Shown in pieces: positions 6,056 through 54,943 of a stretch of DNA of 59,156 bases (positions are counted from its first letter, which is position 1; every line of letters begins with the position of its first letter). The position numbers and the translations under genes are program-made. Origin of the DNA: Escherichia phage vB_EcoM_PD328. Below the pieces are notes generated by a model that made no database searches, had not been told where the DNA came from, and was given only the letters and a program-made list of their open reading frames with translations. Where the stretch lies: sequence record ON922918; one strand, 5' to 3'.

Positions 6056-9000
6056 GAGTAAGTAAAGGATCCTGAACCTCTTGTTACAATCATTGTTGGA
6101 CTTTTTAACCATCTTTTAGTAGCTCCCTGCTTAAATACGATTTTTGCAGTTACAGTTGACGCAGTAACACCTCTAAAAGTAGCCATAACTGTACCAGACG
6201 TGGCCAACATACCACCTTCTGGATCACGAACAGATGTGCCTGCGGCTGCGCTTTTTGTAACACCATTCACGATGATCTCTACCCCTAGTAACGCCCCTGG
6301 ATAGTTAGGGACACCAGAAAGGTTAGCCATGACTGTAATGGTCTTAGTTGTATTAGCTGTATCCTTATACGTGATTGTACGCGACATGTCATATGTACTA
6401 CCTTCGCCGTATAAATCGTCAGCAACACCCATGTTGCATACATCACCAATGAAACTAGTAGCTTCTACAGTCCCTTTGAACTTACCGCTTGTTGCTTGTA
6501 TCTCACCAGTGAATCTACCGCCATTAGCGTATACTATACCTCTGACAGTTACGTTGTTTAATTCAGCATCCCCAGCTTTATTTAACTTCCAACCAGCAGA
6601 ACCAGCTACATAGTTGTTAGATTGAATATAGTTACCGATCTTAGCATTATCAATAGAGCCGTTCTCAATGAACGTCGCCTTCATAAACACTTGACCGTTC
6701 TTAACTGCAAATGCTAAATCCGCTGTGCTGTTAGTTGGGTTATAGATAGCAAAGTTATTAGCGTTCACCATAAAGTAGGATTGGATAGCTCCACCGGAAC
6801 CTTCCATACCCAACTGAATACCAGCAACGTATTTCTGACCTTTACTATCTACCTGGATCTTAGCGCCCCACTGAGCGTTAACGTTACCTTCAAGGTCTAC
6901 AACAGACTTACTGACTTCCTGTACGGTAGCTTTGACCACATCAATCTGTTGGCCGTTTGTCTCGATCAACTTACCTTGAGCATCTATTAACTGCCCCTGT
7001 TCATTGATTGTGACGCCTTGTTGCTGCACTTTACCGTCAACAAGGACTACGGATTGTTGTACTGTGTCAATCGTCTGAGTTAAGCGGCCCTCGGACGTCT
7101 CGATTTGGTTGTCCACATAACTCTTGACACCATCGCTAACGTTTCCAATCTCAGCCATAAGTTCTCTATAGGTGTTAGTACCTTTGAACTCTGTGTCAAT
7201 TTGTGGAATAAGGCCAGCAGCGTCAGTAAAGCATCTTGCAGCCACCTCTACAAAAGAAGACGAACCGAAGGCGTTAATCGCTCGCACGTACCAGTAATAA
7301 GTGTGGTCATTGAGCAGTCCTTCTGAAGTCCACGTTGTACCCATACCGGCACGGGTAGCCTGTTTCTCTACCACATCTACAGCGGCAGATGGTAATCTTG
7401 TTTCACCGGACGTCCAGAAATCATATTGTGTACTAACGTTCGCTAAATCTGCAGATTTTGGTTTCAGTGTTACTGCAAAGTAACCTTGCGTTACTTCAAC
7501 AGATGTAGGAGCAGAAGGTGCCTGAATGTTAAATTCAAGATATGCTTCTGGGCTGGTTGCACCAGTATATGCTACAGCTTTCACATGTGCTGTATAAGCA
7601 CCGCGAATAAGCCCCGTAATTCGCGTGCTCTGGCCCGGTACTTGCACCGTCAATACGGTAACACCATCTTTCTTAATTATTACGTTGTTGTACGCTACAG
7701 CCATTATATTTTGCCACGACAGTACACCCTGTACCACGTCGCTAATCTGTAGGACCTCATATTGTAGGTTCTGAGGTTGCATAGCGCCACCAGTAGGTAG
7801 ATCCACTAAATCCGGTCGGTCTACAGGTTTACCAATCGCATCGTCCCACAAGTCCGGGAAGTCTTGACGCACAGTTACAGTGACACCGCCTTTCGGGTCA
7901 AACTGCCACTTAATGACTCGCATCTCTACCTTGTTCATTCCAATATTAGGAATGTCAACGTAAACGTACATACCTGGACGGAAACGATACCCGCGCATGT
8001 TGCACGGTATTTCAATAGAACGTCCAATGCGTTTGCGTTTCAATGTCAAGTTAGACAGACGTTGTGCCTGGTATGGGCTTGTCACAAAACGATAGTCCAC
8101 GTCTTGTGTAATTTCCTGTCCATCTTGTTTTATCCATTCCGCAACACTTACAGGAGGAAAGTCTGCTTCCTGATAGTTTTGTAGAGGATCAATGTAAGTA
8201 CCTGTGATTGTATTGGTGCGTTCTTTAAAAGCCGTTTCAGGTGTAATTTTAATGTCGCCAGCAATACAACTCGTGTCAAGTGTTAGTTCAGGAGGACCAT
8301 AATATGCACCGACAAGAATACCATGTTTACCGCCAATATAAGTTAACTCTCCGCCACAAGCGTCGAGCATATCCTCCAGAATCTTAGATGGAGCTTCGTC
8401 AATATCAAACTCACCATTTATGGTGTAACGAGGTTCGAATGTATTGTCTGCGTTCCTTACACTTTCATCACAGATATTAGCAGCTTCTTTGAACTGGTCC
8501 CAAAGAATTGCATCATCAGAACGCTTTAAGTATACTCGCAAATAATCTAGAATGACTAGAGCTGCGTTATTGCTAAATACCATCTTACCAGTTCTAGGAT
8601 CTAATACTTTACGACCTTTCTTAAGGCATTTAACGTTAGGTAGACCGGACGGGAATTTTTCAGAATCGAAAACAAGGTTTAATTGCATCCAGCAAATACC
8701 TTTACCAATCATGTCGCTCTTCCATGATGGGCAACGATTCAACATGTCCTGACTAACTTTAGTAGGATTGTTATGTATTACATATGACGCTTTATCACCA
8801 AAACTTTCGATAGCGTCATCACCTAACCACACTTGTCCTACAGCCGTTAGTTCGTGGCCTGCCAATGCAAGAACCAACGTCAGCTTTTCATGGTTCTCAC
8901 CGTGTTTGTCTGGTTCCTGTACTCCCGGTTCCTCTTCCGCAAATACAAGTACACCACTAGATACAGTTGACCCATAAACTACTGTCCTGGATGCAGCAGC

Positions 9001-21645: not shown

Positions 21646-23172
21646 TTATTTATTGGCGTTTTCATTCCCCGTTTGTTCTCCAGTTGTTTGCTGGATTTGG
21701 TTCTGGTCATTCTTAACTTGAGGTAGAAGGAATGGATATTCTTCACGTTCTTTCTCAAGTCGTTCCATCTCTTCTTCAAACGTCAAAGAGGTCATTCCCT
21801 TATCCTGCAACCAGTTGTGCATAGACTCAGCACACAACGGAGCACCAAGATTCTTAGCAGTCTGTACCTGCACCAGTTCCTGACCTTCGATGTTAGCTTT
21901 GCTGAAGTCAAGGTTAGGTGTAACTTTAACTTCTTCAGGATCAAGACCCATCCATATAGCACAGATACGAAGGATTTTTTCTAATGCAGCAGCACCAGTC
22001 TTAGCGATACCGACCAGTGAAGCAGTCTTGGTAATAAGACGTGTTTCCAGTGCATCGCCAGACTCTTGAGCAGCACTCTCTGAACTGGTCAAATGTCCAG
22101 AGCGGGCCTGAGCGTCTTTATGATCAGCTTCAAGTGCTTTACGTTGTTCCGGTAAACCTTGTGAGTTAGTGCCGATGTATTTAGCATCGCCATCTGGAGA
22201 TACATCAATACGAGCTCCAGCACCAACACGAACAGGCGCTTTATCATCAATTGCGTCACTATTCGTAATACCACCACGAACAACCAGCGTATCCTGGCTC
22301 TGCATAAACAAAGCCTGTCGATAATCAGCTTCACCCTGATAGATGGAAATACATCTGTTTGCTAATGCAAGTAGCGGTGGCTTATCTGGTTCTGGCACTA
22401 AGTCCATAGCGTTACAGAATACGAAAGGTATCTGCTCAAGTGGAGTACCTTTATATTGAGGGACTACAACATCAGAGCTTACTTCTTCTGGTTCGTCATC
22501 CTCACCAGGAAGCAATTCTGTCATGTACTGCCCGTACACGTAACCGCTATCCGATGGTTCATCTACAGTGGCACTTCCAAGAACAAGAACTCGGTATTGA
22601 ACTTTATAAGTCCAATCAAATGAAGTCTTGTCCATTACATCTTTAGACTCATCTAATACGACTAGGTTAAGATTAACTGAACCAAGATCGTCTTCACCAT
22701 CATCCCAGTTTCGTATACTTAACGCTTCGTATACCGCGATGTACGGCAGCGTGTCGCGGGTACTTCCCGCTGGCAGCTCCAACAGAAGGCCAAGACGACC
22801 ATCGCGTAGCTGTAGCTCGTTTATGCGGCGTAGCAACTGGTCTAAACTTTCGCGCTTGCTGGTAGCAGCCTGACGAAGTGGTTCCATTGCTGAAGGCAAC
22901 TGGATAATAGCTGCCTTACTATGCAACATACCACCGTGGTTGATTACGGCATCCGCCACATATTCCGGGAACACCGCACGTTCTTTATAATCATTATAAC
23001 GAGTATAGCCATCTTCGCCTGGTTTCATACCGTCATAACGCATAGCAGGTGTCGGTGGAAGATACAAAGTACCTTGAGCCTTAATGTGGTCAGCTCCAAG
23101 GAAACAGTCTCGCATCTTCAACCATAATGCACTAAACTGTAAATATTTAGGATGAACCGAAGAAATGGCCAT
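21646..23172 (-). CDS. portal protein
   Basis: 508 aa ORF immediately downstream of the large terminase gene; size and position typical of a portal. Confidence 0.6.
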   Translation of the reverse strand: MAISSVHPKYLQFSALWLKMRDCFLGADHIKAQGTLYLPPTPAMRYDGMKPGEDGYTRYNDYKERAVFPEYVADAVINHGGMLHSKAAIIQLPSAMEPLRQAATSKRESLDQLLRRINELQLRDGRLGLLLELPAGSTRDTLPYIAVYEALSIRNWDDGEDDLGSVNLNLVVLDESKDVMDKTSFDWTYKVQYRVLVLGSATVDEPSDSGYVYGQYMTELLPGEDDEPEEVSSDVVVPQYKGTPLEQIPFVFCNAMDLVPEPDKPPLLALANRCISIYQGEADYRQALFMQSQDTLVVRGGITNSDAIDDKAPVRVGAGARIDVSPDGDAKYIGTNSQGLPEQRKALEADHKDAQARSGHLTSSESAAQESGDALETRLITKTASLVGIAKTGAAALEKILRICAIWMGLDPEEVKVTPNLDFSKANIEGQELVQVQTAKNLGAPLCAESMHNWLQDKGMTSLTFEEEMERLEKEREEYPFLLPQVKNDQNQIQQTTGEQTGNENANK

Positions 23173-23184
23173 CTGTTGAACTCC

Positions 23185-24783
23185 TTATGTCCCCACAGTC
23201 TTACCGACACTACCGCCACGTGCTTCGTTGGCTATACGATAACGAGCTTCGTCAGCAATGTGGTCTTCAGAATCAGTATCGATATCATCAAGATCATCTT
23301 CGTCTCTAGCAAGAGTTGGAACAAGATCTATAAAGTGATGACAGTTGTCAAAAATAAACATAGAAGGTCTTTCACGTAGAGCGGCAACCTTAGGATCCGG
23401 AATTGAAGCAGCTAAATATTCCCGCATTCGTTTCCAACCTGCTTTACGTGATCCAGGAGATTTATCACTTCGAATCCACTGTACACCAGGATAAGACCGA
23501 CCATTGATAGTTATTGGCTTAGACATTGTTGCTGCGGTACTGTTACCGTCTTTAACGTCCCAAATGCTGTTATCAGCAGGTCCTGGAACTACGCGACCGT
23601 ATAAACCAGCTTCAATTTCCCTGACGATGATACCACGAGCAATTTCAGAATCCAATAATCTTAAACCTTCGTTCGGTTTCCCGTTAGTACCATACCACTC
23701 CATGATCCTAAACAAGTCACCTCGTACAGTTCGTACACGACGCCCATTCGGATACACGATATCACTACCATCACTTCTTGCCCACCAACCGACAGAGAAT
23801 GGTTTACTTGAGCCCCAGTCAAATGATCTATCAATTCTCCAAGAGTGAGGTATTGGGAATGGTTTGACCACATGTATATTCTGGCGCCACAGGTCATCGA
23901 ACATACCACCGGACGTGATATCCCAGCTACCACCGAGCCACGCCATGCGGAGGTTAGGATCGTCAATGTTTACAAGCTGTGCAACATACTCAGGTGTTAA
24001 GTTTCGGTTCTCTCTGTATGAACCAAATATATGGCAGCGAGTACGAACTACGTCTTCCCGTTTCTGTGTACGCGGGTTGAATACGTTCGTTACTTCCTTC
24101 TTCATTGACCCAAGCGGGCAAGAGTTAATAAAATACTTCTTGACCCAGTTATGTCCAACTCCAAATGGGTTAGTCGTAGAAAAGATCTGCAACGGCAAAG
24201 GTGGCAGTATGAACTGCATTGCGTATTCGTGGTCAGGTTGAACGAGGACAAGACGCCCAGTTCGTTGATACACATCACCGTCAATAATTATTGGGTTTTC
24301 TTCCGCAACAAAGGATGTACGGTTACAGGACTTCATCGCTTCATAAAGCCCACTGTCTGGATATTTAGTTAATTCGTTCCATCCAATAAATGGAAATTCC
24401 TGACCGTGGTACAGCCAGTAATCCTTAGGCTTTTTAGCAACACGGAACATTAGTTCTTCACCGCTAGGCCATACCCATTTATAATCTGACTTGGAAGATA
24501 AGAACTTACAACCGTCATTAAATTCAGGAAACCAACGTTGTGACTTTGCTACTAAGTCATCTAAGTTTTTGTATTCTCGGTCAAAAATGATACCGCGCCA
24601 GTGTTTCCCGTACCCCATGCCAACATAACGACGAAAACGCATCAACTGCGCATCAGTCTTTCCAGGACCACGAGTACCGTGATAAAGGATCTCATCGGCT
24701 GGGCAACTCAGTGCCAGCACCTGAGATCCTGGATGTGGTTTCCATACTACCTTAGTGGACGGTGTCTGAATCATTGAGTCCAT
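23185..24783 (-). CDS. terminase large subunit
   Basis: 532 aa; N-terminal Walker A (HGTRGPGKT); followed by the portal gene. Confidence 0.8.
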   Translation of the reverse strand: MDSMIQTPSTKVVWKPHPGSQVLALSCPADEILYHGTRGPGKTDAQLMRFRRYVGMGYGKHWRGIIFDREYKNLDDLVAKSQRWFPEFNDGCKFLSSKSDYKWVWPSGEELMFRVAKKPKDYWLYHGQEFPFIGWNELTKYPDSGLYEAMKSCNRTSFVAEENPIIIDGDVYQRTGRLVLVQPDHEYAMQFILPPLPLQIFSTTNPFGVGHNWVKKYFINSCPLGSMKKEVTNVFNPRTQKREDVVRTRCHIFGSYRENRNLTPEYVAQLVNIDDPNLRMAWLGGSWDITSGGMFDDLWRQNIHVVKPFPIPHSWRIDRSFDWGSSKPFSVGWWARSDGSDIVYPNGRRVRTVRGDLFRIMEWYGTNGKPNEGLRLLDSEIARGIIVREIEAGLYGRVVPGPADNSIWDVKDGNSTAATMSKPITINGRSYPGVQWIRSDKSPGSRKAGWKRMREYLAASIPDPKVAALRERPSMFIFDNCHHFIDLVPTLARDEDDLDDIDTDSEDHIADEARYRIANEARGGSVGKTVGT

Positions 24784-36858: not shown

Positions 36859-39408
36859 ATGCTGGAACTTTTTCCTCAAGAAATTAAACAATACGAACAG
36901 TGGGCTGTCTGCGGTTTTCATCCAGGTACATCATCAGAAAAACAACCTTATGTATGGGACGATGATTTAGGGGATATGGTCCCACTTCGTAAAGACGGCA
37001 ACGATAAAAAACCGTCTAACTTGCATTTACTAATGTCCTTTGAAGATGCGGAACGTTGTATTCGTTACTATAACGAAATCGGTCATAATCTGCGTCTAGG
37101 TTTCTATCTACTTCCAAGTGATCCGTTCTGTTGTATAGACATGGATATTAAAGACACCATGTCTGAAATGGAAAAGAAAGTTGCTGGCGAGCGATATAAG
37201 AAGATTGTTGAATCGTTCCACAGTTATACGGAAATTTCCAGAAGCGGTGATGGGTTGCATACATGGATTTATTCCATCCCTCAAGCTGGTAAGCGCCGTG
37301 ATGGTGTAGAGGTATATTCGCAGTATCGCTTTATTATCTGTACAGGTGATCACTGGGATGTTACTCCGCGTACTGTGTCCGGTGCTCCAGGTAGTGAAAG
37401 CGAAGGATATATTGCTAATCTCATTCATCAACTTATGTCAGAGATGAGTGAAATTAATGAATCCGATGGCTTCCAAATGTTGGAACTTACTGAAGAAGAT
37501 TTCAGTAATGATCCATATGCAATGGAGGATCAGGATGTTTATATCCAGTTATGCGAACAAGAAAACGGAACGTTGTTTAAACAGCTATGGGAAGGTCGTT
37601 GGAGAGCTGAAGAAGTTGATACTTCTATCGGTGAACGCTGTTTCCCTTCTCAGTCTGAAGCAGAATTTGCATTAATTGACTTTCTTTGCTTTAAGAGTAA
37701 GTACAATTTCCAGGTAAGACGTCTATTCATGTATTCACCAATGAGTAGTCGTTACGATGATTCACGTCGTATGCCTGGTGAAAAAATTAAGCGTCCGTAC
37801 CACCTGGATAGAATGATTCGCAACTATCGCTACGATGCCCATGTTAAATCTATGGGACTTATGCAGATAGTTCAGAATAACGTTAATGCAGCTATAGAGC
37901 GCACGGAGAAACTGCGTCAGGCAACTACACCAGAACGCCCACCTGAAGAGGTGTTGACCACAGATGGTAATTACACTGAAGAACAGGCAGACGGTTTAGC
38001 TTGGCCTCCAGGATTTATGGGCGAGGTTGCTCGTAATATGTATAAAGCGAGCTTGTTGCCTATTAAAGACATTAGTATTCTGTCTGCTCTTGCTTTATTT
38101 AGTGGTATGTGCGGTAAGGCGTGGAACACAGTTACACGAAGCGGTCTGAACAACTACTTTGTATTAATTGCACGTTCTGGTATTGGTAAAGAAGCGTTTC
38201 GCTCTAACATTGAAACCATTCTTTCTCAGGTGTCCAATTATGGCGGTCAGGACGGCCAGCAGATATTCGGTATTGAACGTGTTTTAGATACTAGTACCTA
38301 TGCGTCTGATGCTGCATTGCGCAAAGACGTCATTATGGATACATCGGTTATGTCTTGTGGCTCATCCATTAACTATAAGACTGAAGTCGGCGCGTTTTTC
38401 CGTAACGGTAAGATGGAAGTCGGTAAAGCTAAAGATATTATGGATGAAATGCTTTCCCTTTACGATAAGGGGCATTTCTATGCTTTCTCTGGTGGTTCAA
38501 AGCACTCTAGCAAAGATAATACAACCGCTGGTGGTAAGGTCAAGGCATATAGTTTTGCAGGTGAAACTACACCGGATGAATTTTACGGGAACGTTGATGA
38601 CCGCATGATGTCGAGTGGTTTTATGTCTCGTATTATTGCATGGGAATGTACAGCTAACAGGCCACTAATGAATAAGAGTATGCTCCTGGAATATCCAGAA
38701 GCAATTCTGCGCACTATTGGAGCTATCTATAAACAAGCTGTGCGTATTATGTCAGGGACTGCTCCATGTTATGTTGAAATGGAAGCAGAGGTACACGAAG
38801 CGTTTGATAACCTTGATAATGTTGTTGCGAAGTTCCTGAATAGCGGTAATGACGGTGAACAGGTACAGGATGAAGTAATTCGTCAGATGTACACAAGAAA
38901 GGCGTTGAAGGTATTGCGTATCGCCTCCCTTCTTGCTGTAGCGGATAACAGTGAGCGTCCTATTGTTACTATGGAACATTATCGTTGGGCTGAGTCATTT
39001 ATTGATCAGGGTAACGAGCGTTTCTTAGAGAAGCGTAATAGTGGGCAGATTGGCTCTACAGATAGTACCAGTCGTGAGAAAATAATGCTCAACTCTATCA
39101 AGAAGTTCTTGGATGGGGAAGTTAAAGCTGGCGTGTATAAACGGTTCCCGATGTTCAAGGGTGCGTTTATTGTTGCACGGAGTGACTTATGTACTTATTG
39201 TAGACAATTTAAAGCGTTCAAGCAGACAAGAAATGACAACATCCTGCAAGTCATAGACAATACAATCTATGGTTTAATGTCTATGGAAGTTCTTACTGAG
39301 ATGAGGCCAATGGACTTTTCAAGTTTCTTCGGTGCTGAGTTTACACCACCGAGAATGAAATGTTATTTGGTAGACATTGAAAGAATGAACGAGATTATTA
39401 AGTTATAA
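36859..39408 (+). CDS. DNA primase, AEP/PrimPol-like, with large C-terminal domain (putative primase-helicase)
   Basis: 849 aa; N-terminal region has a DxD-type motif (FCCIDMDIKD) typical of archaeo-eukaryotic primase folds; central degenerate P-loop-like ARSGIGKE; largest protein of the replication block. Confidence 0.45.
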   Translation: MLELFPQEIKQYEQWAVCGFHPGTSSEKQPYVWDDDLGDMVPLRKDGNDKKPSNLHLLMSFEDAERCIRYYNEIGHNLRLGFYLLPSDPFCCIDMDIKDTMSEMEKKVAGERYKKIVESFHSYTEISRSGDGLHTWIYSIPQAGKRRDGVEVYSQYRFIICTGDHWDVTPRTVSGAPGSESEGYIANLIHQLMSEMSEINESDGFQMLELTEEDFSNDPYAMEDQDVYIQLCEQENGTLFKQLWEGRWRAEEVDTSIGERCFPSQSEAEFALIDFLCFKSKYNFQVRRLFMYSPMSSRYDDSRRMPGEKIKRPYHLDRMIRNYRYDAHVKSMGLMQIVQNNVNAAIERTEKLRQATTPERPPEEVLTTDGNYTEEQADGLAWPPGFMGEVARNMYKASLLPIKDISILSALALFSGMCGKAWNTVTRSGLNNYFVLIARSGIGKEAFRSNIETILSQVSNYGGQDGQQIFGIERVLDTSTYASDAALRKDVIMDTSVMSCGSSINYKTEVGAFFRNGKMEVGKAKDIMDEMLSLYDKGHFYAFSGGSKHSSKDNTTAGGKVKAYSFAGETTPDEFYGNVDDRMMSSGFMSRIIAWECTANRPLMNKSMLLEYPEAILRTIGAIYKQAVRIMSGTAPCYVEMEAEVHEAFDNLDNVVAKFLNSGNDGEQVQDEVIRQMYTRKALKVLRIASLLAVADNSERPIVTMEHYRWAESFIDQGNERFLEKRNSGQIGSTDSTSREKIMLNSIKKFLDGEVKAGVYKRFPMFKGAFIVARSDLCTYCRQFKAFKQTRNDNILQVIDNTIYGLMSMEVLTEMRPMDFSSFFGAEFTPPRMKCYLVDIERMNEIIKL

Positions 39409-43405: not shown

Positions 43406-43996
43406 ATGCTCATCACGATAATATCGGATGCGTCGTTCTGTCACCGTACTAAATGTGGAGGCTATGGAATTTGGGTAGCCTCCAAACGGGGTAAGAAGGC
43501 TTTTGGTGGCCCTGCACATGGTCACACGGATAATACCGTAGTTGAATGTATTGCAGTAGCTAACGGTTTATATCACGGTATAGAGGCTGGACTTATCTAC
43601 ACAAACGACGTTATATTGTTTCAGACGGATTGCAAAGCAGCTATCCACATGTTCGAAGGTAAACGTCCACCAAGAGGAGAAGAGCAACAGATTTATAAAT
43701 GGTTCATGGATACTATTGTTGAGAATAGGCTTAGTTTCCAGTTCCGTCATGTTAAAGGTCATTCAGGTAGGATGGATTCCCGTAGCCTTGCACAAGACAA
43801 GTGCGATGAAATTGCGGGTATGCACATGCGAACAGGTAGACGTCGCATGGACTACGATAAATTGAAAGTAGATACAGCAAAATCCGTTATTCCTAAACCG
43901 AAGAAAGTTAACATTGAGAAACAGCAATCTTGGGTTAGGAAGTTAAAACTTCTTGTTCGGGAACACACAAAGGTAAATTTCAATGGCTCGATTTAA
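43406..43996 (+). CDS. ribonuclease H
   Basis: RNase HI-like catalytic residues in order: ISDASF (Asp), VVECIAV (Glu), FQTDCKA (Asp), HVKGHSG, DKCDEIA. Confidence 0.65.
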   Translation: MLITIISDASFCHRTKCGGYGIWVASKRGKKAFGGPAHGHTDNTVVECIAVANGLYHGIEAGLIYTNDVILFQTDCKAAIHMFEGKRPPRGEEQQIYKWFMDTIVENRLSFQFRHVKGHSGRMDSRSLAQDKCDEIAGMHMRTGRRRMDYDKLKVDTAKSVIPKPKKVNIEKQQSWVRKLKLLVREHTKVNFNGSI

Positions 43997-44991: not shown

Positions 44992-45738
44992 ATGCAATTT
45001 ACAACTACCGCTCAAGCAGTTCTGGACACTGGTGTTAAGATGCTTGTGTATGGTGAATCTGGTATGGGTAAGACCATGCTTACAGCAACTCTTCCAAGAC
45101 CGTTGCTGATTTCTGCGGAGTCTGGGCTTTTATCTTTAACACCGAATAACATTGCTCGTGTATTTGGTGAAAACAGACCAGATATCTGCTACGATATTCC
45201 AACCATCACGGTTGAAAATATCCAGGATGTAGAGCAGGCTTATGTTTGGGCGACTAACCCTGCAAACAATCCTGTAGGTGAAGATGGTTTACCGCGCTTT
45301 CAGTCTCTTGCGCTGGATTCACTTACTGAGATTGCTGAAAAGTGCCTTAACAATGCGAAGCGTACTGTGAAAGATCCGCGTCAGGCTTATGGGGATCTTA
45401 TTGAGAAGATGCAAACTTTAGTTCGCGCTTTTCGAGATATCCCTGGACTTAACGTGTACATGGCAGCTAAAATGTCCCGTAACAAGGACGAGTTGACAGG
45501 TATTACGTCTTACGGTCCTTCTATGCCTGGTGCAAAATTAGGTCCAGAATTACCATACTTTTTTGACGAAGTGTTCAAAATTAGTGTTGGTAAAGACCAA
45601 AATACTCAAGCAGATTTTCGTTATCTGCTGACCAGACCAGATCTGTCAAATGTATGTAAAGATCGTTCTGGTTCGTTAGAACAGATGGAATATCCACATC
45701 TTGGTGCAATCATTAACAAAATCAAAGGGGTACAATAA
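44992..45738 (+). CDS. RecA-like AAA ATPase (Sak4-like recombination protein, putative)
   Basis: 248 aa; Walker A GESGMGKT near the N-terminus; Walker B-like LALD; size typical of phage Sak4-type ATPases. Confidence 0.5.
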   Translation: MQFTTTAQAVLDTGVKMLVYGESGMGKTMLTATLPRPLLISAESGLLSLTPNNIARVFGENRPDICYDIPTITVENIQDVEQAYVWATNPANNPVGEDGLPRFQSLALDSLTEIAEKCLNNAKRTVKDPRQAYGDLIEKMQTLVRAFRDIPGLNVYMAAKMSRNKDELTGITSYGPSMPGAKLGPELPYFFDEVFKISVGKDQNTQADFRYLLTRPDLSNVCKDRSGSLEQMEYPHLGAIINKIKGVQ

Positions 45739-46664
45739 TGGCCGGTTTAGGAATGCAATTTAACGCTGGACAACACGCAGAGCGTCAACACAATAGCTTG
45801 ATGCCCGCTGGTTGGTATGTTGTTCAGATTGTAAACTCTGAAATCAAACCGACTAAAACTCCAGGCGGTGCGCGTCTGAATCTTCAGTTTAAGATTATGC
45901 AGGGTGATTTTGCTGGTCGTGTAATGTTTGGCGGTTACAACGTCAAGAACGCGAACCCTGTCGCTGTACAGATTGCAATGGAAGAACTGGCAGAGCTGTC
46001 CCGTGCTGTTAAAGTTCCAGTTTGGAACGATACCGAACAACTGCACGGTATTCCGTTCAACCTGAAAGTGAAAGTTCGTCAGCAACCTGGCTATGAGCCA
46101 AACAACGAACCTCAGATTTATCAAGCAATTGATAATATGGAAGGTGTTGTATACGCAACTAAGGCGGACATGGCTAACCTGCCTAAATCAACTCCGGCAG
46201 CGGCAGCACAGTCTCCAGCATTTGGTGGTGGTGCGTTCGGTGGTACTCAGCAGCCACAGCAGCAACCGCAGCAGGGTTTCCCTGGTGCATTTGGGCAGCA
46301 GCCGCAGCAACAGCAGCAGCAGCAGCAACCTCAGACTCAGGGGTTCCAGCAGCAAGTACAGCAACAACAGCCGCAGCAGCCGGTACACCAACAGCAGCAA
46401 CCGCAGCAGTCTGGAACAGTTGATTTTAACAGTGCGGCACAATCTCAACCGTGGGTTAATGGTGCTCAGCAGCAGACTCAGCAGCAACCTAACTGGGCAA
46501 CTCAGCAGGTACAGCCTGGAGCAGAGCAACCACAAACTCAAGCTCAGAATACTGGTACTGCTAACCATGCAGAACCTGAAGTCCAGGATGATATCGCTAA
46601 AGCAGCTCAGACCAAGACTCCACCATGGAAACGTTCCACTGAAGGCGATGACGCTGCACAGTAA
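45738..46664 (+). CDS. hypothetical protein with Gln/Pro-rich low-complexity linker (possible ssDNA-binding protein)
   Basis: Folded N-terminal domain of about 150 aa, then a Gly/Gln/Pro linker encoded by CAG/CAA repeats (46250-46420), then an acidic C-terminus; architecture resembles bacterial SSB but lacks a DIPF tip. Confidence 0.4.
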   Translation: MAGLGMQFNAGQHAERQHNSLMPAGWYVVQIVNSEIKPTKTPGGARLNLQFKIMQGDFAGRVMFGGYNVKNANPVAVQIAMEELAELSRAVKVPVWNDTEQLHGIPFNLKVKVRQQPGYEPNNEPQIYQAIDNMEGVVYATKADMANLPKSTPAAAAQSPAFGGGAFGGTQQPQQQPQQGFPGAFGQQPQQQQQQQQPQTQGFQQQVQQQQPQQPVHQQQQPQQSGTVDFNSAAQSQPWVNGAQQQTQQQPNWATQQVQPGAEQPQTQAQNTGTANHAEPEVQDDIAKAAQTKTPPWKRSTEGDDAAQ

Positions 46665-46726: not shown

Positions 46727-47677
46727 ATGCCACATTTTTATCCTGCTACTAAGACAATGGAGTTATTCAATGACTGTATTGAACGAGATCAAGGATCCGC
46801 TTACAGAGTATGGCTCGGAAAAGTATTACCGCATATTGAAGACGCATATCGAGAGGGAGATGGCGGATTCCGTTCGCATCTTGGGATTAGTCTTATCGGG
46901 CAAGAATGTAGTAGAGCAATCTTCTACGGATGGAGATGGGCAACTAAACCACACTTTAACGGTAAAACCTTACGTCTATTCAATCGCGGGCATCTTGAAG
47001 AAGGTCGTTTCGTGGCCTTACTACTTACCGCCGGTATGCAAGTCATCCAACAAGACGAAAATGGCAGCCAGTATCGAGTCAGCTATCTCAACGGGCACTT
47101 TGGATCTGCAATAGATGGTATTGTCATTGGTTGCCCTGACATGCCACAACCTTCTACACCAATCTTGACGGAAATGAAAACGCACAATAACGATTCGTTC
47201 AAGAAACTTGTCGTTAATGGTGTGATGGAATCCAAATGGGAGCACTATGTTCAGATGCAGGAATACATGTTGTATTATGGACTCCCAGCCGCTCTTTATA
47301 TTGCAGTTAATAAGAACACGGATGAGATTTGGGCAGAGCTTGTACCGTTTGATAAAGAAACCGCAGAACGCTACAAAGACCGTGGATTTGTAATTGCACT
47401 AGCAGAATGCCCACCACCTAAGATCAATGAAAGTAAATCCTACTATAAATGCAAATGGTGTGACCACAAGGCGGTGTGCCATAACAACAAAATGCCTGAA
47501 GTTAACTGCCGTACATGTAAACACTCATACCCGCTTGAAGATGGAACCTGGAGATGTGCAATTAAGGTAGCTTCCGCTACTGCATACATCACCGATGGAA
47601 CAGAAGGTGTGTTAACGAAGGAAGATCAGATGGCAGCATGTGGTCAATACGAAGCAGCAGATTATTACGGTGAGTAA
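46727..47677 (+). CDS. PD-(D/E)xK exonuclease, Cas4/RecB-like with predicted Fe-S cysteine cluster
   Basis: IDGIV ... TEMKTH fits D...E-x-K; Cys at GQECSRA plus C-terminal CKWCDHKAVC (C-x2-C-x5-C) matches the four-cysteine arrangement of Cas4/AddB-type nucleases. Confidence 0.5.
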   Translation: MPHFYPATKTMELFNDCIERDQGSAYRVWLGKVLPHIEDAYREGDGGFRSHLGISLIGQECSRAIFYGWRWATKPHFNGKTLRLFNRGHLEEGRFVALLLTAGMQVIQQDENGSQYRVSYLNGHFGSAIDGIVIGCPDMPQPSTPILTEMKTHNNDSFKKLVVNGVMESKWEHYVQMQEYMLYYGLPAALYIAVNKNTDEIWAELVPFDKETAERYKDRGFVIALAECPPPKINESKSYYKCKWCDHKAVCHNNKMPEVNCRTCKHSYPLEDGTWRCAIKVASATAYITDGTEGVLTKEDQMAACGQYEAADYYGE

Positions 47678-49681
47678 ATGTTCAAACTACGTGATTATCA
47701 GCAAGAAGCTGTAAATAGTACATTGCGCTATTTTATCAAGCATGGTGAAAAGTCAGGAAATCCTGTTATCTTGTTGCCTACAGGGACTGGTAAGTCCCTT
47801 GTAATTGCTGGTCTATTAAAGACAATTCATGATAATTGGGGTAGTACCCGCATGATGGTAATTACTCACGTAAAAGAATTGATAGACCAGAACCACGATA
47901 AGTTCAAGAAGTTATGGCCTGAAGCACCGACTGGTATTTATAGTGCTGGTATGGGTCGCAAGGATAAGAACGCAATGATAACGTTCGCAGGTATTCAGTC
48001 TGTTGCAAAACAAGCTAAATACTTTGAGGACGTTGATATTATTATAGTGGACGAATGTGACCTTATTAGTCCAAATCAGCAAACAAGTTATCAGAAGTTC
48101 TTTGCACATATCCGTGAAAAGAACCCATATCTAAAGATTATCGGTCTTACTGCTACAAGCTGGCGTCTTGGTTTTGGTTCTATTATCAAAGATGACTATG
48201 CTCCTAATGCTCTATTTGATGAAATCGTATTTAACGCGTGTACTGTAGAGTGCTTCAACTGGTTTATTGATGAAGGTTATCTGGTTCCATTAGTACCACG
48301 TAAAACAAAGAAAGAGTATGATGTAAGTGGTGTTCATACTCGAGGCGGTGAGTTCATTGAAAGTGAACTTCAGAAGGTTGTAAACGACCCTGATGTAACA
48401 CGCCATTTGTTAGATGATGCGATTAGTATTGCGGAAGAAGAGGGCAGAATGAGTTGGCTTATCTTTTGTGCTGGTGTAGACCATGCAAAAGATGTAAAAG
48501 ACTATCTCAATGAACGCGGTATTAGTTGCGAAGTTGTAACTGGTGATACACCGAAAGCCTTGCGTGACCAGTACCTCATTGACTTTAAAGCTGGTCGTTT
48601 GCAGGCAATAGCGAACAACAACGTATTGACCACAGGCTTTGACCATCCTGGTCTTGACTTGATAATTGGTATGCGCCCGTCCCAATCTTCCCGCTTATGG
48701 GTTCAGATGCTTGGACGTGGTACTCGACCTGATTATGCTGATGGTTTTGATTTGACCACAACGGAAGGTCGTTTGCAAGCTATCTCCGCTTCGCATAAAC
48801 AGAACTGTCTTGTACTAGACTATGCGGGTAATACAAGACGTCTTGGACCTATTAACGACCCTGTAATTCCTAAGCGTCCAGGGCAGAAAGGAAAGTCCGC
48901 TGCACCTGTTAAAGAATGCCCGGTATGTAAAACCTGGAACCATGCGTCGGTTCGCTATTGTGGTGGGTTAAAACCATTCGATACAAGCAGTATGTCCCAT
49001 GAAGAAATACTCTATCTTCAAGGATTAGGGTATACCATTACAAATAATAAAGCGTGTCGTGCTGGTTATTGCGGTCATGAGTTTACTTTTGAGAAGAAAC
49101 TGATGGCGAGTGCTAGTACGAAAGCTATTATCAAGAATGATTTACCAGTCACTGAGGTATTGAAAGTTGATATGGTGAGTTACTATCGTCATGAGAACAG
49201 GGGTGACCGTTCTAAGCCACCAACACTTCGTGTCGATTATCTTTGTGGCTCACAAACTATTCAACAATATATTTGTCTGTTCCATACTGGCTTTGCAGGC
49301 AAGAAAGCGCGTAACTGGTGGCGCGAGCATTGCAGCTTGGCAATCCCAGCCAACATTGACGAAGCTCTTAATGTGGTCAGCCAACTCCGTGTACCGACGC
49401 ACATCTATGTCAACTTGAAGGGTAAGTTCCCTGAAGTGTTGAATAGTTGTTATGACGGTAGTGAGTTTGGTAAGAAAGAAGCAACTAATGAACGTCCGGT
49501 TGTACAAATCGCGGCAATGAATGGCTTGTCCCAGTTTGGTGGAAGTTATACGAATAAGTTTGATGAAGACGAGCAGACTGATTCTCGTACGACAGTGTTG
49601 CATTCTACGTCTAATCAACCTATTCTTACTGGTAACGGTAAAGAGCTACCACCAGATTTTGATGACGACATTCCATTTTGA
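47678..49681 (+). CDS. SF2 DEAD/DEAH-box-type helicase with SSB-like C-terminal tail
   Basis: Walker A LPTGTGKS, motif II VDECDL, helicase C-domain motifs; protein ends ...LPPDFDDDIPF, identical to the conserved C-terminal tip of E. coli SSB. Confidence 0.7.
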   Translation: MFKLRDYQQEAVNSTLRYFIKHGEKSGNPVILLPTGTGKSLVIAGLLKTIHDNWGSTRMMVITHVKELIDQNHDKFKKLWPEAPTGIYSAGMGRKDKNAMITFAGIQSVAKQAKYFEDVDIIIVDECDLISPNQQTSYQKFFAHIREKNPYLKIIGLTATSWRLGFGSIIKDDYAPNALFDEIVFNACTVECFNWFIDEGYLVPLVPRKTKKEYDVSGVHTRGGEFIESELQKVVNDPDVTRHLLDDAISIAEEEGRMSWLIFCAGVDHAKDVKDYLNERGISCEVVTGDTPKALRDQYLIDFKAGRLQAIANNNVLTTGFDHPGLDLIIGMRPSQSSRLWVQMLGRGTRPDYADGFDLTTTEGRLQAISASHKQNCLVLDYAGNTRRLGPINDPVIPKRPGQKGKSAAPVKECPVCKTWNHASVRYCGGLKPFDTSSMSHEEILYLQGLGYTITNNKACRAGYCGHEFTFEKKLMASASTKAIIKNDLPVTEVLKVDMVSYYRHENRGDRSKPPTLRVDYLCGSQTIQQYICLFHTGFAGKKARNWWREHCSLAIPANIDEALNVVSQLRVPTHIYVNLKGKFPEVLNSCYDGSEFGKKEATNERPVVQIAAMNGLSQFGGSYTNKFDEDEQTDSRTTVLHSTSNQPILTGNGKELPPDFDDDIPF

Positions 49682-49688
49682 GGCTTAT

Positions 49689-49928
49689 ATGGCAAAAATG
49701 ACTTTTAGGAGTAATGACCATTTACCAGAAGAAGGTGAATGGAAGACTTTTAAAGAGTGGGAAGAGTTAGGCTATGGTGTAATTAAAGGTGAAAGAGCTA
49801 AACGGTTTATTCACGGTGTTGCAGTTTTTCACGAAAGTCAAGTAATCAATATTGAAGACGAGTTCGAAAAATATAAACGTGAAGAACTGCAAGGAATGTA
49901 TTGCGGACCAGAATGGTGGAAGGATTAA
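49689..49928 (+). CDS. hypothetical protein
   Basis: 79 aa from the ATG at residue 57 of the track ORF. Confidence 0.35.
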   Translation: MAKMTFRSNDHLPEEGEWKTFKEWEELGYGVIKGERAKRFIHGVAVFHESQVINIEDEFEKYKREELQGMYCGPEWWKD

Positions 49929-51596: not shown

Positions 51597-51622
51597 AAGG
51601 GGCATTTACTGCCCCTTTGTTA
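51597..51622 (+). terminator. rho-independent terminator
   Basis: AAGGGGCA-TTTAC-TGCCCCTT hairpin followed by TGTTATC. Confidence 0.5.
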
Positions 51623-51640
51623 TCTTACCCCGAGGTTCAA

Positions 51641-52405
51641 ATGTTTGCACAAGCCATTATCGCCCACCACTGGGCTCAAGCCAAATTTGGAAATCATATG
51701 AAAATTATTAATACTCAGGAACCTGAGAAGTTAGTTCGTGAACGTGGTATTCTTGACGTACATTCCATTTTTCATACCATTCAAGGCGAAGGCCCATTTT
51801 GTGGTCAACCTGCCGTATTCGTTCGATTAGCTGGTTGTAACCTGCAATGCCCAGGTTGCGATACAAACTATACGTCCAATCGTAAGAAAATGAGTCACAG
51901 TGATATTTGGCAAGAAATTGTTCGTGTCACTGGTGAAGCCAAGACTAAATTAGTTGTCATTACTGGTGGCGAACCTTTCCGTCAACCTGAAGTTGCTAAT
52001 TTTATCAACTACCTTATTGATATGAAAGGATATCGTGTGCAGGTTGAAACTAACGGAACTATGCCTATCCCGCGTGAACTCAACTATAACTGTGTGGTAG
52101 TATGTAGTCCTAAGGCAGCAAAGATTCACCCTAGCGTTTCCGCTCGAGCAAATGCTTTCAAATATGTAATGAAAAGCGGAAACGTCAACGAGGAAGATGG
52201 ATTACCGTTGCAGGCACTGGATCACCGTGCAACACCATTTATCGCACGTCCGCCTGTACACTTTAAAGGTAATATTTATCTTCAGCCTATGGATGAACAG
52301 GACGACGATGCTAATAAAGCAAACGCTCAAGCTGTCGTTAAATACGCAATGAAACATAATTATATCGTGCAATTGCAAGTTCATAAGTATTTAGGGGTTG
52401 AGTGA
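51641..52405 (+). CDS. queE: 7-carboxy-7-deazaguanine synthase (QueE, radical SAM)
   Basis: N-terminal HTIQGEGPFCGQPAVFVRLAGCNLQCPGCDT (QueE-type cysteine cluster) and VVITGGEPF; start taken at the ATG at residue 9 of the track ORF. Confidence 0.75.
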   Translation: MFAQAIIAHHWAQAKFGNHMKIINTQEPEKLVRERGILDVHSIFHTIQGEGPFCGQPAVFVRLAGCNLQCPGCDTNYTSNRKKMSHSDIWQEIVRVTGEAKTKLVVITGGEPFRQPEVANFINYLIDMKGYRVQVETNGTMPIPRELNYNCVVVCSPKAAKIHPSVSARANAFKYVMKSGNVNEEDGLPLQALDHRATPFIARPPVHFKGNIYLQPMDEQDDDANKANAQAVVKYAMKHNYIVQLQVHKYLGVE

Positions 52406-52773: not shown

Positions 52774-53526
52774 ATGATCAAATATGTCCAATTACTTGGT
52801 GAGATTGTTCCAGAAGATGTATTGAATAAGTGTCTGTTCGATGAAGACGGATTTGTAAAACATTATGTAGATACACCTTCACAGTTTGCATCTCACTCGG
52901 CTCTTGGATTTGTAATTCGAGCTGGATATGCAGTGGATGTGTTGAACGACATGAGTCCTACAGTCACTGTTTTTGTTGAAGGTATGGACGTACATGATCT
53001 TATGAATTTAAAGACCGTTTATAATACTCACGTCACGCCACCACGTAATGCACTTTACAAATGGCGTATCAATACTTCTGTTAGCAGAAGCCAGAAAGCA
53101 GCAGAAGAGAATGCCAAGAAGTATACGACATCTACTCAGAAATTAGCTTGTATGATGGACGATCTACTTAAAAACGCCTTTAAAGTTGAGCGGGACAAAG
53201 AAGGTGAGCCAGAAGTATTCATTAATGAAGCATTAATTAAAAAGGATCGTATCCAGGAGATTAAAGCTCCGCGTCCGAATAAATATATGCGCAAAATTAA
53301 AACTTTTGAATCGCATGATATTAACGGTAGCCCGATTGAAATTGATGTATGGGTTGACGTGTACGACGTAATTAAAGCATTCAATGTAACCAGTGGGCCC
53401 ATGCAACATACACTGAAGAAAGTGCTGTGTGCTGGTGAGCGCGGTCATAAAGACTTGCTGCAAGACCTCAACGACATTATTGCATCCGTTGAGCGTGAAA
53501 TTGAAATGGTTAAGGAAGGTAATTAA
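52774..53526 (+). CDS. hypothetical protein
   Basis: 250 aa ORF between queE and the Gat-QueC gene; no recognised motif. Confidence 0.4.
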   Translation: MIKYVQLLGEIVPEDVLNKCLFDEDGFVKHYVDTPSQFASHSALGFVIRAGYAVDVLNDMSPTVTVFVEGMDVHDLMNLKTVYNTHVTPPRNALYKWRINTSVSRSQKAAEENAKKYTTSTQKLACMMDDLLKNAFKVERDKEGEPEVFINEALIKKDRIQEIKAPRPNKYMRKIKTFESHDINGSPIEIDVWVDVYDVIKAFNVTSGPMQHTLKKVLCAGERGHKDLLQDLNDIIASVEREIEMVKEGN

Positions 53527-53527
53527 T

Positions 53528-54943
53528 ATGTGCTCTATCTTTGGTGTTATTACTAACGGTCAACCTGAAAGTCTTATCATTCGTAACGATATCAATGATC
53601 TTATTAAGGCTAGTATCAACCGTGGTCGTGACGGTCTTGGTGTACGCTTTACGCATGGTGACCACAGTATGCACCCGCAACGTATCGTCAGTGTCGGTAA
53701 GCAAACATCGCTGGAACGTCTTGTTAAAGTCGGGCGCATTACATCTCACGCTGGAGCTATTGGTAGCTTCACAATGATTGGTAACGCTCGCGCCGAACCG
53801 ACTACAGAGTGGGTTATTGACAAGAATGAGTGGGACCAGCAACCGTATCATATGGATGGTTGGACTATTGTTCATAACGGTACTATTGCGAACGATAAAG
53901 ACCTTCGTACCTATGCACTACAGACTAAAATTGATAGTGCTGCCATTGTTGAACAGTTAGCAGAATGTACACTTTCAGCGGATGAAATGTGTTTGTCTGA
54001 CTTTAATTACCTGTACAGTGTATTTCATGAAGTTATTCGTAAATTGAAAGGTAGCTTCGCAATCCTTGCAACACATGATTCCTTTCCGGGATGTGTGTTT
54101 ACAGCATGTAATTATCGTCCAATCTGGATCGGTAAGACTGATACTGGTATGTATTTCGCCAGCCAGGAAGACATGCTACCAACCCGTGCGATTAAGCAGA
54201 TGCTGAAACCTTATTCATGTAATGTGGTTACATCTACTGATGTATGCAATGAAGTTGATCTTATTCCAAATAAACAGACTCAACGCGCGTTAGTTGTCGC
54301 CAGTGGTGGCATGGACAGCACGGTGGCAGCTCAGATGTGCAAGTCCAATGGTCTGGAAGTCACTCTGATTAACTTCCAGTATGGTTGTCGTGCAGAAACT
54401 AATGAGTTAAAGGCTATTCGTAAGATTGCGGAAGTGATGGAAGTTCCGTTAGTTGAGTTCCCAATTCCAATCTACGATAAGAAAGACAGCCCGTTATTTG
54501 ATCAAGATGCTGCAATTGCTGGTGGCGAAGAAGGTGCTGAGTTTGCCCACGAATGGGTTCCAGCTCGTAACCTTGTGATGCTTTCTGTTGCTACTGCATA
54601 CGCAGAAGCTAACGGTTTCGACTATATTGTTCTTGGTAACAACCTAGAAGAAGCTGGAGCCTATCCGGACAACGAGCCTGAGTTTATTAACCGCTTTAAT
54701 CAGGTGCTACCATTCGCTGTAGGCGACGGTAAGCGCGTTGAAGTGCTCATGCCTGTAGGTAACTTAATGAAGCATGAAATTGTCGCTACAGGCCTGCGTT
54801 TAGGGGCCCCGCTTGAGCACACCTGGAGCTGTTACCGTAACGGGGATTTGCATTGTGGTACTTGCGGCCCTTGCATGATGCGTCGGACTGCGTTTAATAT
54901 TAATAACGCACAAGAAGTTATTAAATACGAAAGCGAGGCGTAA
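53528..54943 (+). CDS. queC: glutamine amidotransferase-QueC fusion protein (Gat-QueC)
   Basis: Starts MCSIFGV (N-terminal Cys nucleophile of class II amidotransferases); C-terminal half has the QueC PP-loop VVASGGMDST and zinc-binding CYRNGDLHCGTCGPC. Confidence 0.75.
   Translation: MCSIFGVITNGQPESLIIRNDINDLIKASINRGRDGLGVRFTHGDHSMHPQRIVSVGKQTSLERLVKVGRITSHAGAIGSFTMIGNARAEPTTEWVIDKNEWDQQPYHMDGWTIVHNGTIANDKDLRTYALQTKIDSAAIVEQLAECTLSADEMCLSDFNYLYSVFHEVIRKLKGSFAILATHDSFPGCVFTACNYRPIWIGKTDTGMYFASQEDMLPTRAIKQMLKPYSCNVVTSTDVCNEVDLIPNKQTQRALVVASGGMDSTVAAQMCKSNGLEVTLINFQYGCRAETNELKAIRKIAEVMEVPLVEFPIPIYDKKDSPLFDQDAAIAGGEEGAEFAHEWVPARNLVMLSVATAYAEANGFDYIVLGNNLEEAGAYPDNEPEFINRFNQVLPFAVGDGKRVEVLMPVGNLMKHEIVATGLRLGAPLEHTWSCYRNGDLHCGTCGPCMMRRTAFNINNAQEVIKYESEA

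Follow-up and report, generated by a model that had tools for sequence, protein, structure and literature searches.

The C-terminal tip of bacterial SSB on a RadD-family helicase of a Nonagvirus coliphage: a candidate tethered docking peptide

[quoted passage not shown] Genome maintenance in bacteria uses the C-terminal peptide of SSB (SSB-Ct) as its central docking currency, and the peptide is a drug target; the question is raised by one gene of Escherichia phage vB_EcoM_PD328 (record ON922918), a Nonagvirus (9g-like, Queuovirinae) coliphage of which a stretch of 59,156 nucleotides, hereafter the window, was analyzed. At 47678..49681 on the plus strand, starting with ATG, the window encodes 667 residues plus a stop; the translation of this open reading frame (ORF) ends in ...GNGKELPPDFDDDIPF, and its C-terminal peptide is ...ELPPDFDDDIPF. 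The last eight residues, DFDDDIPF, are the last eight of the Gram-negative SSB-Ct, MDFDDDIPF (PMC10238739, PMC5531588), for which PMC10018359 gives at least 17 partners in E. coli. An earlier note, written from the letters alone, had called the product a phage helicase of the superfamily 2 (SF2) type that ends with the E. coli SSB tip; Pfam, the PHROGs family and homology to RadD bear out the first statement, and comparison of the translation with the published SSB-Ct the second. Its interpretation, SSB mimicry to hijack or compete for host SSB-interacting factors or recruitment of the helicase by them, is supported in part. Our preferred answer, to which we give a probability of roughly 0.45, is that the tail is a selected, tethered docking peptide of the SSB type, that the helicase would serve as a recruiting hub, and that its likely readers are the host partners of SSB.

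Chance resemblance, or an artefact of sequencing or reading frame, is practically out of the question. By our own arithmetic, based on background amino-acid frequencies, the probability that DFDDDIPF closes a given protein is about 4e-11, and the pattern [DE]3[IVLM]PF occurs once among the 628 ORFs of at least 40 residues in the six frames of the window, at the helicase C-terminus. The helicase gene is found at full length in 17 GenBank Nonagvirus records, SP8, SE1, BRET, JenP1/2, JenK1 and 9g among them, with 93.7-97% nucleotide identity over 100% of the length and at least 99% protein identity, and the 90% cluster of the protein holds 205 member sequences. These 17 genomes, the presence of the tip in 176 of 197 unique homologues and the free synonymous variation described below together rule out a coincidence or an error; the frameshift that the earlier note had feared did not occur, and the tail is shared by the helicases of related phages, about which the same note had wondered.

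The conservation of the tail is sharply confined to its end. Among the best 120 homologues from a collection of 5.8 billion proteins (44-100% identity, many labelled 'DNA repair protein RadD' by JGI), about 117 close with acidic residues and then [IV]PF, and the roughly 40 residues before this end cannot be aligned. With 80 IMG/VR loci added, the set comprised 197 unique helicases, of which 176 keep the tip, by consensus [DE][DE][DE][IV]PF, at identities down to about 33%; the C-terminus is DDDIPF in 85 of the 197 and PF in 173. Anchored at the C-terminus, the information content is 4.55 bits at position -1 (F), 4.41 at -2 (P), 3.31 at -3 (I/V), 3.03 at -4 (D), 3.23 at -5 (D), 2.33 at -6 (D/E), 0.98 at -7 (F/D/L/M/E) and 1.37 at -8 (D/E), and each of positions -9 to -20 is variable, with less than 0.55 bits, the linker being hypervariable across homologues. 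Position -7, which corresponds to F172 of E. coli SSB, a residue important for PriA stimulation (PMC5531588), is most commonly hydrophobic (F 34, L 23, M 23) or acidic (D 30, E 21) among the 176 tips. The tail past the conserved FG597-598 measures 10-112 residues, with a median of 41, and its linker is rich in A/P/T/V/S/D/E; four homologues carry a second DDDIPF about 25 residues upstream of the terminal copy. P0057, P0048 (...DDDFAFS) and L045 lack a clean tip. Most of the relatives are metagenomic or binned contigs of uncertain host, and in those binned to Lentisphaerae, Victivallales and Verrucomicrobia the tip is still present at 32-35% identity.

At the nucleotide level, the 31 distinct versions of ...DDDIPF-stop use both Asp, three Ile, four Pro and both Phe codons, and all three stop codons occur among them. 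This freedom of synonymous and stop codons indicates that selection acts on the peptide and its terminal position, not on a nucleotide element. Taken together, the alignments argue that the tip is a sharply bounded, family-wide functional short linear motif, carried on a disordered tether and held under purifying selection.

A second line of evidence comes from helicases that have no tail. Eighteen of them, in one clade nested within the tip-bearers, stop directly after the folded C-terminal domain, without linker or tip. In 21 of 22 tail-less loci, including those of the cultured Salmonella phage emhyr and Vibrio phage GH32, a Cys-rich protein of 60-76 residues is encoded, with the pattern C-x-N-C...C...PP-x-VIV-x-GC...W-x-x-[DE]-[IV]-P-F at the stop; in most of the 21 loci it starts at -1 to -41 nt relative to the stop of the helicase, and at L073 an HNH gene is inserted between the two. 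The family is phrog_23504, of 'unknown function' in PHROGs. The small ORFs of emhyr (L087:7652-7873, or 23119-23340 of record MT074444) and GH32 (L088:7742-7957) both overlap the stop of the tail-less helicase and encode 71-73 residues, Cys-rich, of phrog_23504, ending in DYDVPF or QIDIPF; at least one GenBank phage record, MT074444, leaves the ORF unannotated, the next annotated coding sequence beginning at locus position 7920. Across the 5791 ORFs of at least 50 residues in 80 loci, the non-helicase ORFs with a tip-like end number 16, all of them small Cys-rich proteins, and in the same ORFs the small tip protein is absent from every locus with a tip-bearing helicase. A database search with the 71-residue protein returned one match, the word index being insensitive to short proteins.

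Because the tail-less clade is monophyletic, it represents essentially one evolutionary event, in which the helicase lost its tail while the tip was kept on another carrier, tightly coupled to the helicase gene. That the tip survived on a small protein of its own once the tail was gone, and that the motif is present family-wide, are our grounds for regarding the tail as functional. The uncharacterised family phrog_23504 would thereby likely gain a role assignment.

The body that carries the tip is a RadD-family SF2 motor with a zinc-ribbon region and a C-terminal domain, extended by a disordered linker of about 45 residues and the tip; the assignment rests on the translated ORF, Pfam, PHROGs (phrog_16, 'DNA helicase'), phmmer and Foldseek. 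E. coli RadD (6jde/7r7j/8h5y) is the top match among PDB sequences by fifty orders of magnitude: 6jde_B is matched at E=7.3e-65, helicase residues 2-417 against RadD 3-387, with SauUSI as runner-up at 1e-14. The alignment reaches the start of the CPAC zinc ribbon of RadD, a feature described in PMC9049331. Foldseek with an AlphaFold2 (AF2) model (input alignment of 111 sequences; mean predicted local distance difference test (pLDDT) score 86.9) against the PDB retrieves RadD chains at E 8e-36 to 1.5e-33 over 639-665 aligned columns that cover the whole of RadD, the next family following at 1e-15; the template-modelling score of 0.43-0.52 and the root-mean-square deviation of 17-18 A go with a domain orientation that is not alike.

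All parts of the protein lie on the plus strand. RecA-like motor domain 1 (Pfam ResIII/DEAD, residues 2-160, 47681..48157) holds Walker A G38-K39-S40 and the DE pair 125-126, each invariant in the 111-sequence alignment, and is the counterpart of the region that contains the SSB-Ct pocket in E. coli RadD. Motor domain 2 (Helicase_C, PF00271, E=2.6e-12, residues 249-350, 48422..48727) has invariant Q343, G346, R347, G348 and R350 in that alignment, and the Cys cluster of the zinc-ribbon region (residues 414-469, 48917..49084) has invariant C414, C417, C428 and C465. The folded C-terminal domain (about residues 490-615, 49145..49522), defined by the AF2 model and the full-length Foldseek alignment to RadD, is predicted with pLDDT 91-96 at residues 490-610 and consists of beta strands and helices H538-551 and H560-569; residues 1-615 as a whole are confident save for a disordered loop at 473-487. 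Beyond it come the intrinsically disordered linker (residues 616-659, 49523..49654) and the SSB-Ct-type tip (residues 660-667, 49655..49678), followed by the stop at 49679-49681; all of residues 616-667 have a pLDDT of 36-41, with no secondary structure and no rise in confidence at the tip. The modelled layout of folded body, disordered linker and acidic tip matches that of SSB. Two side observations concern the family: the homologue P0032 (995 residues) has homing-endonuclease/intein-type Pfam domains (PF05204, PF05203, PF14528), and an alignment of 121 sequences contains one very large insertion directly before the P-loop, between GNPxV and PTGTGKS, which may belong to P0032.

The kinship with RadD raises the possibility that the tip acts in cis, docking in a RadD-type pocket of the same helicase and either switching the ATPase on without host SSB or inhibiting it until displaced. 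E. coli RadD binds SSB-Ct on motor domain 1 in a pocket framed by R21, R49 and R145; the peptide WMDFDDDIPF binds with a dissociation constant of 5.4 uM, RadD ATPase is stimulated about 3-fold by the SSB-Ct peptide, and binding is lost when the charge of a single one of these arginines, whichever it be, is reversed (PMC10238739). In the phage family, judged by alignment only, the R145 equivalent is K/R in 119 of 120 homologues, the hydrophobic pocket positions are kept and F19 is invariant, and a tether of some 45 residues would give the tip a high local concentration. Against this stand the other two arginines: by the same alignment the place of R21, after F19, is taken by I/R/E/A/D or a gap, and that of R49, behind a 5-residue insertion, by N/G/S/T, so that neither has a conserved basic equivalent and the full RadD pocket, two of its three essential arginines lost, does not appear to be kept. 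The AF2 model, itself weak evidence here, gives no sign of the tail docking; some tails extend only about 10 residues beyond the folded domain; and proteins without kinship to the helicase bear the tip as well, namely SSBs, an Erf-like annealase and a processivity factor. Because the R21 and R49 equivalents are not basic and the model lacks cis-docking, we rank cis-regulation low, as an improbable explanation, and favour a function in trans.

For such a function the genes upstream of the helicase are informative. A Cas4-domain (PD-(D/E)XK) exonuclease at 46727..47677 (+; phrog_1990, E=7.9e-115) has a stop that abuts the helicase ATG, and the same gene adjoins the helicase in nearly all related loci. 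Before it lies a DUF669-type phage SSB at 45738..46664 (+; Pfam DUF669, E=1.4e-8; phrog_6015 'single strand DNA binding protein', E=1.7e-94), with a Q-rich tail that ends in ...KTPPWKRSTEGDDAAQ and has no SSB-Ct tip; its end, ...PPWKRSTEGDDAAQ, is neither acidic nor F-terminated. A Sak4-like (AAA_24, RecA-core) ssDNA-annealing protein at 44992..45738 (+; phrog_124, E=1.4e-54; Pfam AAA_24, E=6.8e-23) completes the module of the window; most of the loci whose flanks reach far enough have such a gene in the module too. A hidden Markov model built from 23 canonical phage SSBs, run on the ORFs from all six frames of the window, detected no canonical SSB with an oligonucleotide/oligosaccharide-binding (OB) fold at E<=10, and the helicase itself is an SF2 motor, not an OB-fold ssDNA-binding core. 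Since the tip pattern occurs once, the DUF669 SSB has no tip and a canonical SSB was not detected, the helicase is the only tip carrier in this genome.

We suggest the following mechanism for the preferred reading. The helicase would be a RadD-family recombination or branch-migration motor within a Sak4-like/DUF669/Cas4-like/helicase module, and because the DUF669 SSB lacks a tip, it is the helicase that displays one. Proteins with an SSB-Ct-binding pocket would dock on it at forks, ends or D-loops; the helicase would recruit such readers, or be recruited by them, and so act as an SSB-independent hub. As the exposed peptide is that of host SSB, the likeliest readers are host SSB-interacting proteins (PriA, chi/Pol III, RecQ, RecJ/ExoI, RecO, RecG, DnaG), and a terminal DFDDDIPF on a flexible tether would be expected to enter, by its terminal Phe and the carboxylate, the basic/hydrophobic pockets that are occupied by the free SSB-Ct peptide, which binds SSB partners unaided. 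Modules of Firmicute phages point in the same direction. Streptococcus phage Javan7 and Lactococcus phage 98203 have first a Sak4-like gene, then a tail-less helicase, then a DUF669 protein ending in EEDDLPF or EPDDLPF, and the Firmicute SSB tip is of the DDDLPF type (PMC5531588); that such modules bear a tip of Firmicute type would count for host readers. The covariation of host and tip is coarse, with DDLPF in Firmicute phages versus IPF or VPF in proteobacterial phages, and the tail-less helicases of mycobacteriophage Rosebush and a Brucella phage sit in other gene contexts and are hence uninformative on it.

Several observations weigh against host readers. The phage carries its own polymerase, primase, RNase H and ligase, which puts its need for host replisome factors in doubt. 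Enterobacterial relatives (Seuratvirus-like phages and Hafnia phage yong3) have drifted tips, DPDYVPF and EEDLDVPF, whereas their hosts keep DDDIPF, and the tips of the small Cys-rich proteins are much less acidic (AEIPF, GEIPF, SAVPF), which suits a co-evolving phage reader better than host pockets that form a fixed set. About 15 Acetobacteraceae-associated loci (about 40% identity) have tail-less helicases and no tip carrier that could be found within 4 kb. Finally, the sole tail reader that experiments have demonstrated in such modules is a phage protein, the Sak4 of HK620 (PMC5928155).

A phage-encoded reader is accordingly the alternative that we take most seriously, possible yet more doubtful than host readers: the tip may recruit the Sak4-like recombinase, so that ssDNA made by the Cas4 exonuclease and helicase is passed straight to the annealase, or it may bind the phage DNA polymerase. 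Analogues are familiar, since lambda Exo loads Red-beta and the tails of T7 gp4 and gp2.5 bind polymerase. The HK620 Sak4 reads the tail of a DUF669 SSB, the last six residues of which, NDYPPF, Sak4 requires if it is to bind SSB-coated ssDNA and to be stimulated in vitro and in vivo (PMC5928155), and both lambda Exo and host SSB are partners of the C-terminal domain of Red-beta (PMC6393309). A Sak4-like gene is at hand in the same module, the Firmicute phages place Sak4-like, helicase and tip-bearing DUF669 genes in one order, the drifted or weakly acidic tips (VPF clades and small proteins) suit co-evolution with a phage partner, and the tip of Pseudomonas phage 73 sits on a polymerase processivity factor, as does that of L165. 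On the other side, the helicase tip fits host SSB at eight of eight residues, far better than it fits NDYPPF; the DUF669 proteins have a conserved PPW of their own that could be the Sak4 handle, distinct from DDDIPF; and tip-bearing SSBs are common in phages without Sak4. We therefore rank host readers first and a phage-encoded reader a close second, with the Sak4-like recombinase as its best candidate.

A peptide identical to host SSB-Ct would inevitably vie with it for its pockets, and the tip might thus be a decoy that competes with host SSB for its partners and shuts down host repair or nuclease functions on phage DNA, instead of bringing anything to the helicase. The four homologues with two tandem copies of DDDIPF would suit such a role. 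Monovalent peptides of micromolar affinity are, however, poor stoichiometric inhibitors in the face of abundant tetrameric SSB, and a decoy would have no need of one particular enzyme, yet the tip remains tied to the helicase, either physically or through coupled translation; of the explanations that assign the tip a function, this one seems to us the least probable.

The PPW motif deserves separate mention. It lies near the C-terminus of the DUF669 SSB of the window, at residues 295-297 (nt 46620-46628), and is kept in the DUF669 homologues (L001-L080), where 2-11 residues follow it (e.g. ...ATPPWAAPQQ); it may be the partner-binding motif of DUF669 itself (compare ...YPPF in HK620). The DUF669 protein of L185 has both PPW and DDDIPF, ending in ...VPPWAAKPAEGLDDDIPF, which indicates that the two motifs are distinct. 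A simple transfer of the tip from DUF669 to the helicase is for the same reason too simple an account, since the DUF669 proteins keep their own PPW and L185 bears both. The same SSB contains a long Q/P-rich low-complexity stretch (QQPQQQPQQ..., about residues 145-275, window 46170-46560), probably the counterpart of the disordered linker in bacterial SSB.

How widely the tip travels was sampled by scanning viral contigs for DDDIPF-stop, which gave at least 120 stretches and 112 recovered ORFs. Among the matches listed, most of the 112 are SSBs of several folds: 34 canonical OB-fold SSBs, 12 mini-SSBs (phrog_18154) and at least 6 DUF669 proteins including L185. The same matches contain 8 members of phrog_862, 4 of phrog_1811 (73-75 residues; L115, L164, L098 and L126) and 2 of phrog_2402 (L104 and L124), all three of unknown function, as well as 4 RadD-like helicases, one Erf-like annealase (L109, 270 residues) and one processivity factor (phrog_947-like). 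The last, at L165, has 392 residues and ends in IEDDDIPF; Pseudomonas phage 73 has a tail-less helicase, and two genes downstream its processivity factor (phrog_947; L085:7959-9122) ends in NYEDDIPF. The emhyr homologue of this processivity factor has 331 residues. Two further proteins end in DDDIPF: L119 (291 residues), TIR-like at its N-terminus by eye, and L150 (504 residues), with extremely acidic and basic repeats. The tip on non-SSB replication and recombination proteins is thus a recurrent minority pattern. We speculate that it is a portable module, moved by phage cassettes among the DUF669 SSB, the RadD-like helicase, the Cys-rich protein, the processivity factor and the Erf-like annealase, with a reversal from reader to displayer in the RadD lineage, a tentative idea that we consider less likely than not.

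That each module has one tip holds in the wider clade of the window; as a universal rule it fails in the Acetobacteraceae-associated clade and in Vibrio phage 1.005.O, where no tip carrier was found within 13.6 kb. The Acetobacteraceae-associated clade (L218, L221-L231, L233, L257 and L265) comes from Roseomonas, Falsiroseomonas, Neoroseomonas, Roseicella and Crenalkalicoccus, and several of its Sak4/DUF669/Cas4/helicase modules are parts of large contigs from the genomes of isolates. Behind the helicase, Acetobacteraceae-associated loci have a gene of another conserved family (...AGEYL[DE]SIGK[ST]DLA...), and its end is tip-like only at L220 (...GEPPF) and L219 (...DEFPY).

The wider neighbourhood in the window is that of a replication region. 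Upstream on the same strand, the order begins with an AEP/DUF3987 primase (36859-39408), a RusA-like resolvase, a dUTPase, a DUF7173 protein and RNase H (43406-43996), and continues with an ATP-dependent ligase, the Sak4-like recombinase, the DUF669 SSB, the Cas4-domain exonuclease and the helicase; a DNA polymerase (phrog_1252) lies at 3-1394. Eight nucleotides past the helicase stop, at 49689-49928 (+), starts an ORF of 79 residues that ends in ...MYCGPEWWKD (compare ...GCPEW..EIPF in the small proteins) and weakly resembles ArdC-N (E=2.7e-4, a match that falls short of the Pfam cut-off). We considered it as a small tip protein and rejected it, as it belongs to phrog_24889, not phrog_23504, and has no Cys cluster. 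Farther downstream, the window holds a radical-SAM QueE-like gene at 51617-52405 and a GATase-QueC fusion at 53429-54943; QueE-like and QueC genes belong to 7-deazaguanine DNA modification, which is believed to be typical of Queuovirinae.

In the literature covered, to which most subscription journals do not belong, we found an SSB-Ct tip described neither for phage RadD-like helicases nor for phrog_23504. Related UvsW/D10 helicases have been described as retron triggers in PMC12746101, which mentions Nonagvirus and not the tail; the reverse primer uvsW3' of that paper implies that T4 UvsW, an SF2 recombination helicase, ends in ...DEVEESF, acidic with a terminal Phe. Docking by SSB-Ct and the SSB-like tail of T7 gp4 are known already, and the carrier, the reversal from reader to bearer in the RadD lineage and the distribution of fused and split forms appear to be new. 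A large phage helicase family with SSB-Ct on a non-SSB protein, kept across a change of carrier, offers a handle on how virulent phages with non-canonical SSBs meet the host SSB interactome or build their own, on the roles of RadD-type helicases beside RecA-like proteins, and on the migration of short linear motifs between proteins of one machine. If the proposed function is true, phages with a tip-less SSB build an SSB-independent hub that is plugged directly into the host SSB interactome.

Comparison with known systems shows where the helicase stands. With E. coli RadD (YejH; 6JDE/7R7J/8H5Y) it shares a homologous motor, zinc-ribbon region and C-terminal domain and, as we infer, a likely recombination-accessory role beside a RecA-like protein; RadD reads SSB-Ct, whereas the phage helicase bears the tip (the PDB sequence of RadD has 586 residues, and its C-terminus lies outside the comparison). 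With bacterial SSB-Ct it shares the same last eight residues, a terminal Phe with a free carboxylate and a disordered, poorly conserved linker before the tip, but SSB is an OB-fold homotetramer, and the phage carrier is a monomer-type SF2 helicase with one tip per chain, or two in four homologues. Phage- and plasmid-encoded SSBs are alike in their host-type DDDIPF tip, which mobile elements commonly copy; in contrast, non-SSB carriers are a minority among the matches listed, where RadD-like helicases make up 4 of 112, and as a class they seem to be undescribed.

The nearest parallels are other phage tails. The T7 gp4 helicase-primase and the gp2.5 SSB have acidic, Phe-ended C-terminal tails that serve as docking elements in the replisome and bind the phage polymerase, and gp4, like the helicase described here, is a phage helicase with an SSB-like acidic tail and a terminal aromatic residue. 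The T7 tails, however, mimic the phage's own SSB, whereas the tip of the Nonagvirus helicase copies the host SSB consensus and differs from the tail of its own DUF669 protein. HK620 likewise combines a Sak4-like protein and a DUF669 SSB in one module and uses a C-terminal hexapeptide ending in P-F as a recruitment handle; there it is the SSB that carries the peptide, with a sequence different from the host tip, whereas the helicase of the window carries the host tip itself.

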